NCBI RefSeq assembly: GCF_964204865.1
Contig: NC_135260.1
Span: 15,190,001 to 15,254,000 of the forward strand
Length of the DNA stretch: 64,000 nt
Source of the DNA: Styela clava
Taxonomy: Eukaryota
Direction of reading: 5' to 3'
Shown here: positions 51,366-60,616 of the stretch, one piece after another
Position numbering within the stretch: position 1 is the first letter of the stretch
How the letters are laid out: the number at the start of each line of letters is the position of its first letter
Translations under genes and position numbers: made by a program
Notes under the pieces: model-generated
Databases searched by the model: none
The model's input: only the letters and a program-made list of their open reading frames with translations
Told to the model about the DNA's origin: nothing

Positions 51366-52673
51366 GTTACAAGTAACACGATAAGGTGGCAACTCTTATA
51401 GCTTAGGTCCTAAGTTTATCATGGAAACATTGAAATACAAATTTGTTAAGAGTAGTTTGGGAAAATATCATTTTGCAAATATCAACCTAACAGCAACTTC
51501 ATGTAGACAGGTAAGGATGCATATATAGAAATAAATCCCCTTTATCCTACATATAAAAATTTTCTTGACCTCCAGAGTTGATATGTCGACTAGTATACCA
51601 GTACTTTGTATAGAGATAAACGTTACACGCATACATTTAGGCAATGATGAACCTAATGAAATGAGTATGTCGTCATGAAAAAGTTGAGGAAATTAAAAGC
51701 AAGTTTCGCTATTATTGGGTACATTGTATTCAGATATATATATGATATTTACCTTGCTTGTTTTCATTTTAGGGCATGTTTCTGTTACAAGGCACTTTTG
51801 TTTTCCCCGTCACATGACCGCAAAAATACTTACCCATGACGGTTTTTGTACTTTTTCCACGGCTCTAAATAGCATTCATTTGAATTATTTGCATTTAGAT
51901 ACCAAGGATCGTGGAGAATGGCATAGGTTACGACCTAATTACTTTATCTGACTCAGTTTACTTCAACAATACTTCCTGTCTCACATTTTTCTAAAATTTT
52001 ACACAACACAAACTGCAAACACGGTAAACGACGTGCGTTCAATGATACTGACTTTTTCACCTACATTTTTGAAGGAACAACCACACAAAAGAGTTCTAGC
52101 CTATAAGGTAGAGTATCTGATTCTATGATATTTAACTTAGTTCGTTAAAAGCATTTACTCGGCGCGCTGTTTCATTTCAAGATATTTCAATCACAGCCGG
52201 TTGTTAGAGATGAGTTTCTACTTGAACGGAATATATTGCTAAAGAGATACTGGGAGAAGAGATATAATATATTGAATTTGATTAGATTCTTGACTTATTC
52301 AAAAATTTATTATGAAGTACTTCAGATATTTCAAATTTTTGTCATACCTTCACTCCGTGCAGGAAGCTGATATTTTAGCAAAGTGGGACAGACGCTAAAA
52401 TCATTTTATTAATGAATTACACCAACATAGCAAAGGTCGTTGAATAATTCATTTTTATGGGTGGAAAACTATGAAGTAGCTTGTTCACTAATGCGGATAC
52501 CCAAATATGACTCCTAGATAATAATAACTCTCAGTTCTGCCCATGCTCCTGAAGTGTTCATGGAATTATTAACCTTACAGTCTTGAATTCCACGTGAAAC
52601 AACTTTCCAACTTGAGATTTCCATGCGGTTGACATTCTATAGTTTTTTTGCTCTCACTTAGTATTATTCATAC

Positions 52674-53711
52674 CAGTGATTTTCCTACACCCCCCCTATA
52701 GGGGGTGAACACCCCCCTAAAATTTCAAACACCCCCCCTAATTTTGAGGTGCGATTCCACACTGAGGTGTTCTAAACCGCAGTCTGCGGGCCAATTACGG
52801 CCTTTGAGTTTTAGATACCGTCTATTGTTACATCATTATCACAGTTTAAGCACGTTTATTTCGTAACAATTGAATTATTCCGGTATCTTATGTATACGTA
52901 TGGGTATTAGGATTACACACTGCAGTATTTTAGATATCAGCCGTATATTAAGAAAGCTTAAAGATGTCACAAAACGAAAACTAGGCACTGAAAACAGACG
53001 TTTTTTAGATGAATGACAGCGTTTTTATTTCTTTATTGAAAAGAATCAAACTTCAGCGATTTGTCTTCTTACCAACAAAATATTTCAGTTCTGAAGGAAT
53101 ACAACATTATGCGACATTATGATTAGTTGACGAGCTTATTTCAAAATTTAATTCATACAAAAGTCAAACAAACATGTTCAAAAAAATTAGAAATGTGTAA
53201 CAAAACAAGCCATTAGTAGCCATTCATACAATGCCAGATTAGCAAGTAACTTCATTAGTCCATATCAGTTGCAAATTACTTGTTGAAACGTAGTAGTATA
53301 TATTTACGGTTGAAAGCCGTGCTTGTTATCTATTCCCCGGGAATTCTATCAGCTAAATAATATAATTATTGATTTCATTACATAACAAACTGCGATGCTA
53401 GGTGTATCTAAAATCAAGCTTAGAGCCTATTTTGGTGCCTATTTCTCAAAATTTTCTCAGGGCGCGCTCAAGCCCAGCCGTGTCGTCCCGCGCTTTTCCT
53501 CGCTCCCCTTTTCTGGCCCTACAATTTCTTTCTGCTGTGGATTTTGGCTCGCGTCAATCAACTTGGGGGGCCCCCATGTACATCGTTTCTTAAATACATA
53601 CCATTTTTTTAAGAATACAAATAGCCTAGTTTTATCTCTAATAGCAAATCATTTACCACCCCCTAAATTTTGAAACACCCCCCCTAAAAAGAAAAGCTTG
53701 GGAACATACTG
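52674..53711. mobile_element. hAT non-autonomous element (1038 bp) inserted 20 bp upstream of the collagen-FA58C start codon
   Basis: Termini CAGTG...TACTG; perfect 8-bp TSD ATTCATAC (52666-52673 and 53712-53719); CACCCCC(C)TAA subterminal repeats at both ends. Confidence 0.85.
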
Positions 53712-53731
53712 ATTCATACAATATATCCATC

Positions 53732-56126
53732 ATGAAATTTCTCGCTGTTGCCTGTTTGGTATTTATGTTTTCCTGTGTATTATGTCATATGCCGACATTG
53801 TATGAATTTTGTTCACACGTGATGGCGAACAGCAATGTGAGTCGTGCACGATGTGATTCGAGTCAGTGTCAAGGAAGACCAGGAAAAAGAGGAATGGAAG
53901 GACCACATGGATTACCCGGAATTAAAGGAGAACAGGGAGAACCGGGGACAAATGGAGAACCGGGGAAACCCGGAACAGTGGGATATATAGAAGAAAGGAT
54001 TAGAAAGTTGGAAGGTTTTTCATCAATTTATATATGTTACAGTTCTTTTAAAATATTTTTCAATATACTCAAGCTGTTAATAGGATTGGTTTCAACTGTA
54101 AGATCTCATATGCTAGATAAGCATATATATACTTCATTTTAACATTCCTGTTTGTATTTATTTCTATGTTCAAGATTCAGTTTTGAAGAACAAAGAGCTT
54201 ATGAAGATGATGACGAATGGTAAGCGCTCTCGGAAGAAATAGAAAGATTTTATTGTATTTTCTTAGTTTCGATTTCAATAGGTTAATAGAAAATAAAATT
54301 ATAGTTTTTTAGGTTTTATTATAATACAACAACGAAAATTTGGTGATTTATAGGTGATTTATACAAACACAGTGTAAGCAGGGCTAATGAACCCATTTCG
54401 GGACCTATTTCAACAGTCCAAAAAAGATGCAATATAACCTGATTTATCTGTTCCGCACTATAGATTAGGTTGAATACGGTATGTCGTCACATTTTCTTTA
54501 TTTAACCTTTAGATACAGTTTATCCTATCTACCATAACCCAGAATATATCATCGAGTAAAATTTAAAAATATGGTGATTCACAACAGCTGATCTCGCCTC
54601 GGTTTTCGCATAAAAATTCAATGACTTAAAATATAGAAATTGAATGTCATACATACTGTGGTAACTTATACTAATTGAATTTCAGCCGAGATTTGCTACA
54701 TGGGTGTGAAATATCATCACATAATTCCTGACTCTCAAATCGCAGCGTCATCAGAATATAGTACCCGGCATCAAGCTCATAATGGCAGATTGGACAATAT
54801 TGATAGTTCATCAACAACGTATCCAATCTGGTCTGCGGCGAGAAGTAAGTGTGTGTTAATTTTCTATAATTAGAATAGCCTTACAATTTGGTTACACGTG
54901 TAAGTATATTTAGGGTGGTTATTTAAATTTGATGCTTTACACAAATTCTTGAAATTTTGAAGCTGTCTTTAAATAAAATTCAAACGAATAGTAATTGAGT
55001 ACCGAGGTAATGATACACGCCTCAAAACAAATTCTGAATTGTTTGGCACCAAATTATGACAATAACCCATTTTGGAAAGACTTAGTTTTCTTGGCTTTAT
55101 CAACCCGAAATTATCATTGTTAATCTGTGCCAAACTTGAAAGGGAAAAACAAATCAGGCAATATTTTGGGGCATCTGTAGATGAATTTATTATTTAAGGT
55201 TGTTTAACGCTACTGCTTTTGTGGCGCAATTTGTTTACGGGTTATTTTCTCTGCCTGTTGCAAAATTACCAGCATTTAAAAAGTGATGCAATCAAAATGT
55301 GGGCGAGGAAGGTAAATCATACCCAATTGATATAATATTCAAATCAATGAACAATTATTTTATAGATGTGAAAGGAGAATGGCACCAGGTTGATTTTGGT
55401 GAACCTAAACCAATAGGAGGAATCGTCACACAAGGAAGAGTATATCACGATCAATGGGTTTCGTCTTTCAAAATTTCGCATGGAAATTCCACCGGCGCGA
55501 TGGTCGTAATACGTGAGAACGGTTTAGACAAGGTAAGGAAGTATTTTGAGATATTCTTTACGTATATATTTAAAACATAATCAACACATTTTAAACCTAA
55601 CAAGCTGTCGGTTGTTGCTCTGATAAGGAATTTCTGAGTCATTGTGCACAGACTTATATGATAAAATGCACAATATATTAGACACCAGTTCGTTAGGACG
55701 AGGTTTGTAAAACACAAATTTCAAATGTAGTTGACAACAATGAGATGTCTCTATGTCCCAGTGCTTGCAGGGTTGATGAACCTTGCCAGTGTCCGCCATC
55801 TTGATCCACATACTTCGGGAGTGCCGCAATTTGTACATAGACTTGCTCAGAGTGAATGAATATAAAAGCGTGACATAATTTATGTGCATTACTTGCACAA
55901 TCAATGTTACAGAAAATAAATTTTTGTGTGATATGTTATTGAGATGATTACTATATTGGACTTTTTCTAGGTGTTTACTGGAAATAGTGACAGGAGCACC
56001 AAGGTCACCAACATGTTTCCACATGTAATAACATCTCGATACATTCGAGTTCATCCTCAAACATGGCAGAGACACGTGAGCATGAGAGTGGAATACATAG
56101 ATGGAAAGTGTCATGGCTTACTGTAA
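53732..56126 (+). CDS. Secreted collagen-tailed F5/8 type C (discoidin/FA58C) domain protein, 269 aa, collectin-like architecture
   Basis: Exons 53732-54014, 54175-54219, 54686-54844, 55366-55532 and 55971-56126 join in frame (810 nt). Signal peptide MKFLAVACLVFMFSCVLC; 13 Gly-X-Y triplets GRPGKRG...GTVGYI; neck IEERIRKLEDSVLKNKELMKMM. FA58C motifs: C..G....IPDSQIAASS, GRLDN, W.A, EWHQVDFG, GIVTQGR, QWVSSFKISHG, FTGNSD, SRYIRVHPQTW...SMRVE. AATAAA at 56180. Confidence 0.92.
55789..55825. mobile_element. Solo TIR fragment of the Merlin-like MITE family
   Basis: GTGTCCGCCATCTTGATCCACATACTTCGGGAGTGCC matches the right TIR of 50302-50496. Confidence 0.6.
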
Positions 56127-56774
56127 ATGATATGAACACGACAAAATCACTTCGTATATTCGACGCTGTCCATGGTTGAAATAAAATAGGTGATTGTCAG
56201 TGGTACTAAATCGGCTGAAGCATGTTATAAATACTTCACCTATCCCCCCTATTCCATTGATTAGCTTTAACGTTTAAAAATAGAATTTGATAGTTAGATT
56301 GCTAATGGCGAGAAGTGCATTTGAAACGTTTAGTTTGGTGGTAAAGTTGCCGTTTTAAATAACTTGACTGACTTTTGCAAATGAAATCATAAACTTCTTT
56401 GTCAAGATACATTTTCAAATTTAGATGGATTCTTGTGATCTTGTTTAAACTAAATGAAAAACAGTCGTTTCACAAAAATTCTCTATCGGTATTTGTTCTG
56501 TAGTTACTTATCATTTATTTTCTTAACTAAAAAACAATTTTAAAGTAAGATTCTTGAGAATTGATGACCACGATCCCATTGATTATCGTTATAAAAGTTG
56601 TCGTCTGATTTTGTCAATCGTTAAGATTATGCCGTAGCATGTACATAACTATCGTATATATGTGACTGCCTTTAATTCGTATTCTTTTATGACATGTTTT
56701 TGATAGACTGTAATTCTATGCCAGCTATGTGATATGTCAATTTGTTTTGTATAATAAAGTTTCCTCCGGATTCA

Positions 56775-57135
56775 CTGGCAAGATTCTCCCATGGTATTCC
56801 CGTGTCCTGTTAGAGTTGATTAATATATATATGTACGTCGCTGTCTACCCACGCTTCTTTTCCCATGTTTTGGTTTTCATAGAATCAGTTCATGTACGAT
56901 TTCTTTCTTGTTTCTATAGCAGTGGCGCTGAATCTAAGGCGTCTCTCCTTTATTATGGTTGTGATGCTTGGTAATTTACCGTATAGCGTTTAGTTTGGAA
57001 TCTTATTCTACCATGTTACTCCTTTAACTACTCTAAGCATTTTTGTGTATGCGCCGTTCAGCTTCTGGTTTGCTGCCTTTGTGAGTGTCCACGTTTCTGA
57101 TCCATACAAGAGAACAGTTTCTACTGCACATGTGA
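56775..57135 (-). mobile_element. 5'-truncated, decayed RTE-clade LINE (C-terminal end of the RT ORF)
   Basis: The minus strand translates as AVETVLLYGSETWTLTKAANQKLNGAYTKMLRVVKGVTW*NKIPN*TLYGKLPSITTIIKERRLRFS/HCYR...LILWKPKHGKRSVGRQRRTY.../QDTG, with stops and frameshifts. YGSETW, RRLRF.GH and G.R..GR are RTE hallmarks. Confidence 0.85.
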
Positions 57136-57141
57136 TCAGAG

Positions 57142-57700
57142 TAGTTTTTTCTTGGTAATTTCCTAGTTCAATTAATACAGTGGTGTACTAGTTTTACTTT
57201 TTATATGACGTCACACTGTCATCTCACTTCTTACTTCTGTGCCAACACCGAAACTTTTTTTTTTTTACTTATCATGATTAAAGTAGTTATTTCTTTCTTG
57301 GTAAAGTCCTAGTTCAATTAATACAGTGGTGTACTAGTTTTACTTTTTATATGACGTCATATTGTCCTCTCAATTCTTATTTCTGTGCCAACACCGAAAC
57401 TTGTTTTTTTACTTATCATGATCAAAGTAGTTATTTCCTGGTAAAGTCCTAGTTCAATTAATACAGTGGTGTACTAGTTTTACTTTTTATATGACGTCAT
57501 ATTGTCCTCTCAAGTCTTACTTTTGTGCCAACACCGAAACTTGTTTTTTCGCTTATCATAATCAAAGTAGTTTTTTCGTGGTAAAGTCCTTGTGCAATTA
57601 ATGCAGTGGTGTACTAGTTTTACTTTTTATATGACGCCATATTGTCCTCTCAAGTCTTACTTTTGTGCAATACCGAAAACTTGTTTTTTCGCTTATCATG
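57142..57700. repeat. Tandem array of about 4 copies of a 140-146-bp unit
   Basis: CAGTGGTGTACTAGTTTTACTTTTTATATGACG recurs, with its TGACG at 57206, 57352, 57492 and 57632. Confidence 0.95.
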
Positions 57701-59616: not shown

Positions 59617-60598
59617 TCACTGCAGTCTCTCCTTCATCCAGACTTCGTATCTTTGCTCTGTAGTGCCCTCTGGCGGTTCGTATTTTGCACAAATCCAGTA
59701 GTCTTCCCAGGTCCTGATGTCATTTTTCAGCAAATCTAAGAAAAGGGCGCCGGCTTGCTCGTTGCAATATTCAAAAGTGTAGTTAGCAGAATACGAACGC
59801 ACATAGAATGTTTCTTCGGGAGCTTTGAATGATGTGATCGTCTTGTCCGGGGTTTGGGGGGCATATTTTGTCAGCGGAATCGGTAAATAAAACTGAGTAT
59901 TATATTCAACAGGGCAAACTTTCATTGGCTTATTTGTTTTTTTTTTGCCTTCTCCGCCGCTTATTGTTTAGCTTCGATTTGATGGTTGATTTTGGCTTGA
60001 TTGTTGTTTTTGGTTTCATCGTAGGCTTTGGCCTTTTATCTACTGTTTCTAAGATCGGATATGTCAGTGAGTGATATTGGCGCTGGTAGTTGAAGCCGTT
60101 GAAGTAAAGGTAAAGCTTCAAATATCCATCTCCTGCAGCTTTCTTTTGACCCTGGCATTGTCTGAACGACCTTGCCCACCATTGCTCTGGGTATACTCTG
60201 ACCTGGTACGTACCATCTTCCGGCTGTTTTTCCGCCAGTCTCCATTTTGGTTGATTGACGAGTTGTTTAGCAGAGTAAGCGGTCCGCCACGCCTCCGTAA
60301 AGTATTCAGGTTTTTTCGGGGTAGGTTCTGAAACTGATACGTTGTCATCACCCATTGTGTCGTCACTATCTGGAGAATCACCACCCACTGTTGCGTCATC
60401 GCCACCCATTGTTGCGTTATCGTCCGATGTCTCGCCGTCACCATAACCTGTTTCTCCTTTCATCGTGACGTCATCCTCCCCAGCCTCACCTTTAGTTTTT
60501 GCACCACCCACTGGTTTCTCGGGCTCTTCCATACTGGCTGCGCCTACCAAGGCGACCATTGCCAACCCAAGTAACAATAATACCGTAAAAGACCTCAT
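59617..60598 (-). CDS. Intronless secreted SOUL/HEBP2-family protein, split by a +1 frameshift at about 59930-59946
   Basis: ORF 60598-59930 has a signal peptide and N-half SOUL motifs (YQVRVYPEQWW, GYLKLYLYFNGFN, LTYPI). ORF 59925-59617 has the C-half (QFYLP, APQTPD, FYVRSY, AKYEPP, RYEVW). Removing one A from the A10 run (T10 at 59937-59946 on +) fuses them as ...RQKKTNKPMKVCP.... Confidence 0.85.
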
Positions 60599-60616
60599 TT
60601 TTTACTGTCTGTTCGG

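Follow-up and report, generated by a model that had tools for sequence, protein, structure and literature searches.

The window analysed here, a 64,000-nucleotide stretch of the Styela clava genome, contains on its forward strand a real gene that encodes a collagen stalk followed by a discoidin (FA58C) head (Table 1). Its five exons, the first of which spans 53732-54014, form a single open frame of 269 amino acids across introns that are all of the GT..AG type (phases 1, 1, 1 and 0). The predicted protein is identical to the Styela clava RefSeq entry XP_077974354.1, named "lactadherin-like isoform X1", the very label that a previous reading of the DNA made from the sequence only had expected from automatic pipelines. 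The layout given by that sequence-only reading, namely a signal peptide, a Cys segment, 13 Gly-X-Y triplets, a neck partly encoded by a 45-nt exon of its own and one FA58C domain, was entirely found in the 269-amino-acid frame. The collagen exon is spliced to the FA58C exons, since contigs from run X4 (presumably RNA) join exon 1 to exon 2 and exon 2 to exon 3 at GT..AG boundaries, including both joints that flank the 45-nt exon; run X6, by contrast, contains the introns. The first of the refuting conditions named in the sequence-only reading, separate splicing of collagen and head, therefore does not hold. For introns 3 and 4 the support comes from the RefSeq model together with spliced contigs from close paralogues; at C16:7.21 Mb, contigs join or bridge all four introns of such paralogues. 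The RNA nature of runs X1-X5 is a presumption, and contig depth was not taken for ranking genes; copy-specific cover of exons 3-5 is little or none in X1, X2 and X4, which is no evidence of silence.

Table 1. The discoidin-head gene and the insertion preceding it, in window coordinates
Feature	Position	Strand	Basis
Non-coding insertion of 1,038 bp with short imperfect inverted ends	52674..53711	.	8-bp target duplication at 52666-52673 and 53712-53719
Signal peptide, aa 1-18 (putative cleavage site)	53732..53785	+	Hydropathy and family alignment
N-terminal Cys segment, aa 19-47: predicted short helix with F26-C27, then C41 and C46	53786..53872	+	12-member comparison, low-confidence model
Collagen, 13 uninterrupted Gly-X-Y triplets, aa 48-86	53873..53989	+	Translation
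P-G-K-R-G-M, MASP-site-like motif conserved in the family (there often PGKRGP)	53879..53896	+	42-model counts
Second motif, P-G-K-P-G-T, in extra triplets private to the window copy	53960..53977	+	Family alignment
Start of coiled-coil neck, end of exon 1 (phase 1)	53990..54014	+	Helix in both AF2 models; trimer contacts 86, 90, 93
Exon 2, 45 nt, remainder of neck	54175..54219	+	Run X4 joints; trimer contacts 97, 100, 104
Exon 3: FA58C start, Cys113, variable loop 1 (54754-54774), most of loop 2 (from 54796)	54686..54844	+	
Exon 4: FA58C core, variable loop 3 (55437-55457)	55366..55532	+	Pfam F5_F8_type_C E 3e-7
Exon 5: FA58C end, variable loop 4 (56067-56081), Cys265, stop	55971..56126	+	Pfam E 3.5e-7
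Candidate polyadenylation signal	56180..56185	+	Sequence only

Pfam recognized Collagen (E 5e-7) and F5_F8_type_C (E 8e-23, profile positions 1-126 of 127) in the window protein, and inspection of the sequence revealed no membrane anchor. The mature chain has Cys residues at positions 27, 41, 46, 113 and 265 of the translation. C113 and C265 are invariant among 12 diverse family members and close the head at its N- and C-terminal ends, as in FA58C domains of the coagulation-factor type. F26, C27 and C46 are invariant in the same comparison and C41 is conserved as well; the N-terminal segment is a candidate inter-chain disulfide hub, with a helix (residues 23-33) predicted only in a low-confidence AF2 model.

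The 1,038-bp insertion, which by the usual criteria would be a hAT-type MITE, stops 20 nt short of the ATG; in run X6 its right end is present at high copy number. It separates an acceptor-like AG from the ATG, such an AG being found ~24 nt before the ATG in most close paralogues; it contains 12 ATGs and an alternative acceptor-like site at 53644, after which there is no ATG. An older RefSeq model from the same cluster as the window gene, XP_039273943.1, shows 7 residue differences and then runs out of frame in exon 4, owing either to a broken allele or to an assembly error. In the present assembly the window copy has an intact frame and spliced contigs, yet it may be weakly used and, given the transposon-like insertion and the truncated older model, may not be fully functional. 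Elsewhere in the window, a multi-exon collagen gene (~18600-42400, forward strand), which has numerous short Gly-X-Y exons and GKRG/GRRG as basic triplets, presumably resembles the membrane collagens XIII/XXIII/XXV. Downstream of the discoidin-head gene lie a tandem repeat (~57130-57700, unit of roughly 140-150 bp) and, on the reverse strand (59617-60601), a gene for a SOUL heme-binding protein (Pfam PF04832, E 3.7e-6) that looks secreted and includes an acidic repeat region; the coding sequence of this gene apparently spans two frames.

The order of parts is the same as in MBL, ficolins and C1q (PMC2856262). As proposed from the sequence, the Cys segment, collagen, neck and globular head of a collectin- or ficolin-like molecule are all present, and a secreted chain with a Cys segment, collagen and a C-terminal globular domain has the layout of a defence collagen. 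Collectins (MBL, CL-11, SP-A/D) and ficolins, ascidian ones included, share these parts and the signal peptide, and further likenesses are a trimer (predicted here), a PGKxGP-like motif and expansion in the Styela clava genome, for which 25 MBL and 54 ficolin genes were reported as expanded (PMC7540406). They differ from the window family in bearing a C-type lectin or fibrinogen head instead of FA58C; in addition, the collagen of the window family is short (usually 9 triplets) and the X of its motif is mostly Arg. Pfam detected in the window protein neither Lectin_C, the defining head of collectins, nor the fibrinogen-like head that defines ficolins. Lactadherin/MFG-E8 and EDIL3 have the FA58C fold in common with the window protein (30% identity to the C2 domain), as well as the database label; nevertheless, the EGF with RGD, the two C domains and the hydrophobic spikes that characterize lactadherin/MFG-E8 are missing from the window protein, which has one FA58C domain and an added collagen stalk. 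Retinoschisin (RS1; E 7.5e-15) is also a secreted protein with a Cys-containing N-terminal piece and a single discoidin domain, but it possesses neither collagen nor a coiled neck. RS1 is oligomeric, single-copy and conserved. By the defining features tested, the window protein is not a collectin, a ficolin or a lactadherin; its construction is nonetheless that of a defence collagen, and a mode of action like that of a defence collagen is the most likely one.

In agreement with the earlier remark that no named family has this architecture, literature searches covering titles and abstract starts, mostly of open papers, retrieved no description of collagen plus FA58C in tunicates. A Styela clava "Sc-lactadherin" is reportedly called an agglutinating glycoprotein in the title of a 2019 article by Guo, Dou and Dong (PMID 31140104). 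Compared by title alone, it may belong to the family of the window gene, a member of which would thus perhaps already have been assayed. An atlas of the Styela endostyle cites this article on agglutinating Styela lactadherin (PMC10980280), and the accessible parts of the text and supplement of the Styela genome paper contain no mention of lactadherin or discoidin (PMC7540406). The collagenous lectins of Styela plicata (Nair 2000; Green 2003, 2006), secreted and induced in inflammation according to a review (PMC5465252), are collagenous and secreted like the window protein, a likeness drawn from the description in that review.

The sequence-only reading had missed the main point, which is that the window gene belongs to a large family with hypervariable head loops. 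A search of the genome with exon 1 located at least 113 places, with the best 150 of 247 candidates scored. FA58C exons lie downstream on the same strand at all 54 of the best loci (E up to 3e-8), and all three of them fall within the fetched stretch at 47. The paralogue count that the previous reading had recommended yielded, by automated building, 42 models with exon 1 and a head, spread over 11 contigs; 38 of them end with the normal Cys tail, and their heads are 34-99% identical (median 49%). The genes are arranged in tandem arrays with broken copies, the window gene being the lone copy on contig C14 of a subfamily of C16, and most paralogues have 9 Gly-X-Y triplets versus 13 in the window gene. 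In several automated models (C2, C6, C13:5.9 Mb and one on C4) the exon-3 donor is wrong; these contribute to the motif counts and the family tree and were excluded from the selection tests. Family members are hidden in databases under the labels "lactadherin-like", "retinoschisin-like" and "inactive carboxypeptidase-like". Full-length stalk-plus-head matches with a nameable source all come from Styela clava; multi-FA58C proteins dominate the best 150 of 8,936 matches in the representative-sequence search, and word-based searches miss distant kin, so that absence elsewhere is not implied. The ESM Atlas holds one chordate "lactadherin-like" cluster of 59 members for the family and returned only generic collagens for the stalk. 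A 1,109-amino-acid protein with collagen and several FA58C repeats was set aside because of its different layout. One family member (C18:18150374, 409 amino acids) carries an extra C-terminal domain (PF15711) after its FA58C head, and at C2:17.57-17.61 Mb and C4:2.4-3.2 Mb family genes recur in almost identical blocks, some of which include orphan exons or stops, reflecting either recent segmental duplication or assembly duplication.

An AF2 model of residues 55-269 built from a 53-row alignment (pLDDT 86.8, pTM 0.73), which replaced a poor one from 14 rows (pLDDT 59.8), shows the neck as a long helix and the head as a beta-barrel, to which Foldseek matched factor VIII C2, lactadherin C2 and neuropilin b1 as the closest folds (E ~1e-15, rmsd ~2 A). 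The trimer suggested by the previous reading was also predicted by modelling: three copies of residues 19-269 scored 0.43 versus 0.01 for the best of three controls, at least 85% of the contacts agreed between runs, and partner pLDDT was at least 80. The predicted interface comprises the collagen (47-83) and neck residues 86, 90, 93, 97, 100 and 104. In calibration, 21 of the 30 solved pairs and none of the 23 single chains attained the mark applied, the eukaryote figures being 17 of 29 (animals, 7 of 16), 1 of 7 without an older solved relative and 0 of 30 single chains; our job is unlike the calibration set, and collagen and coiled-coil trimers have already been solved, so the model may have reproduced known structures. 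The prediction supports a trimer and does not show it. Collagen and neck would assemble three chains with their three FA58C heads at one end, and the N-terminal Cys may link such trimers into larger oligomers.

Four variable loops (residues 133-139, 147-166, 187-193 and 251-255) stand out in the head, their boundaries having been fixed after the alignments had been inspected. Among the 9 closest copies, dN is 0.42 in the loops versus 0.065 in the framework, a 6.5-fold difference, and dN/dS is 0.99 versus 0.25; these loop and framework counts used 9 and 12 models, and the maximum-likelihood site tests, run with purpose-written codon-model code, 9 and 8 of the 42. In the 9-gene set the likelihood-ratio statistic was 29.9 for M1a/M2a (omega 3.3 at 11% of sites) and 27.6 for M8a/M8, compared with 16.6 and 17.7 in an independent 8-gene subfamily and 0.0 in the stalk control, and the signal was also significant for each head exon analysed with its own tree. 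The 9-gene set has 8 sites with posterior >0.9, and every one of them is inside the loops, which align with the spike regions of lactadherin. Hypervariability at the binding face is thus an observed property of the family. Positive selection, by contrast, is not a robust conclusion, because a class with omega 1 and a ~3-fold overall rate fits better than M2a (lnL -2118.6 versus -2128.5, and -1673.3 versus -1679.2), and because recombination was detected, nearby sites being more compatible than chance (p 0.0005). The fast-neutral class absorbs the signal, leaving nothing for omega >1, and its lnL gap was matched in 0 of 20 simulations under M2a. The loop excess stems from multi-base codon differences (57% versus 28%) and not from silent changes at unchanged residues; synonymous differences at codons for the same amino acid are not raised in the loops (0.161 versus 0.147; 0.076 versus 0.146), which argues against plain local hypermutation, by a measure biased towards close pairs. 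We infer that the most likely cause of the loop hypervariability is selection together with loop swapping by gene conversion.

Given the layout, splicing, family size, conserved stalk and variable loops observed here, and the three-chain assembly predicted, we consider it on balance somewhat probable that this large sea-squirt family of collagen-stalked discoidin proteins, the window gene among them, consists of diversified soluble pattern-recognition agglutinins or opsonins acting as trimers. With the four loops at their tips, the heads would bind ligands repeated on a surface, the most likely being glycans or proteins of microbes or foreign cells, and each paralogue would have its own specificity. 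The family is a direct test case for the ways in which an invertebrate chordate can broaden its range of recognition in the absence of gene rearrangement. The same loop hypervariability and recombination could serve self/non-self or gamete recognition, if eggs, sperm or blood cells carried FA58C heads that are polymorphic and tell individuals apart; one run X1 contig has a loop-2 variant not seen among the 9 nearest genomic copies, and a mammalian lactadherin has reportedly been studied as a sperm-zona binding protein. Dispersal over 11 contigs does not fit a single recognition haplotype, however, and the window protein has no membrane anchor; we regard this function as improbable.

The previous reading had also proposed opsonisation through phosphatidylserine in the manner of lactadherin, an idea that the comparison of the binding residues did not support. 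The spike residues W26, L28, F31 and F81 of the lactadherin C2 domain align to gaps in the window protein, where R148 is replaced by His, and in 6 other members the spike positions are gaps too, except for one Trp opposite F81. Since W26/G27/L28 and F81/G82 mutants of lactadherin lose membrane binding (PMC12109337), and since RGD is absent from the window protein (it is present in 2 of the 42 models), a fixed phosphatidylserine-bridging role seems unlikely for this protein. A bridge of this type, using trimer avidity to bind dying cells, for example at metamorphosis, would be in keeping with the closest folds of the head, but one fixed lipid ligand does not explain the variable loops either, and we regard this explanation as improbable.

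More tentatively, an effector, most simply a MASP-type protease, might dock at the P-G-K that is conserved where the collagen starts. Both PGKRG (residues 50-54) and PGKPG (residues 77-81) occur in the window copy as noted previously, neither being followed by Pro, and the latter sits in four extra triplets private to this copy among the 42 models. Across the family, Pro precedes Gly-Lys in 41 of 42 models, Lys is present in 37, and the full PGKxGP in 21, and this conservation extends over the two deep branches of the family tree; 33 models have Arg at X, with PGKTGP, PGKMGP and PGKIGP as variants. The MASP motif (Hyp-Gly-Lys-X-Gly-Pro) normally has an aliphatic X (PMC2856262, PMC3179595), and the presence of MASP transcripts in ascidians has been reviewed (PMC5465252). 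Because half of the models (those 21) have the full motif, MASP recruitment appears more plausible for the family than the previous reading could see; for the window copy, which reads PGKRGM, it appears weaker, because the essential Lys is accompanied by an Arg at X and a Met in place of Pro, a degenerate site. The Arg at X counts against MASP docking in the family as a whole, as does the proximity of the PGK site to the Cys hub. Gly-Lys-Arg as a cleavage or amidation signal was rejected, as Arg varies while Lys stays.

The same basic patch invites another reading, in which the trimers would be secreted into the tunic or the pharyngeal mucus as cross-linkers of the matrix or mucus net, with sulfated glycans bound by GKRG and with matrix partners or food particles as the ligands of the heads. 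GKRGK in the collagen helix of ColQ is indeed a heparan-sulfate site (PMC4561558), at least four "Mfgm"-labelled genes, whose identifiers are not mappable to the window family, mark different cell clusters of Styela, including endostyle epithelium (PMC10980280), and the fast-neutral model of the loops would fit. The stricter conservation of Lys than of Arg in the motif (37 versus 33 models, with the variants listed above) speaks against it, and structural matrix proteins would rarely need dozens of copies differing mainly at the binding tip, so we regard it as unlikely.

Recognition-triggered complement is described as resting on three head types, C-type lectin, fibrinogen and gC1q. A more ambitious version of the diversified-agglutinin explanation, which we put forward as a tentative possibility, is that the complement-initiating defence collagens of tunicates include a fourth head class, with 40-55 germline FA58C-tipped trimers whose loops, like antibody CDRs, would be diversified by selection and loop swapping, and which would dock MASPs through the conserved PGKxGP. 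If true, such a large family, whose discoidin heads have variable loops, would show in the vertebrates' sister group that the collagen stalk is a plug-in module. Among 8 weaker exon-1 loci scanned, 2 have fibrinogen heads and 3 have C-type lectin heads on similar one-exon stalks, which suggests that such stalks serve three head types in the Styela clava genome; their descent from one stalk is only conceivable. Common ancestry of the N-terminal Cys helix with Styela ficolin-type stalks received no significant support (E ~5; reversed control 0.63), pairwise stalk scores being largely due to collagen. At C5:8.64-8.66 Mb there are stalk exons with a signal peptide, a short collagen containing PGKRG and a coil, and no Pfam head in the ORFs scanned at one locus. 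In ficolin-type genes at C19:5.33 Mb and C10:11.17 Mb the short collagen begins with GKAGP, and a MASP-like site therefore lies at the very start of the collagen in ficolins of this genome as well.
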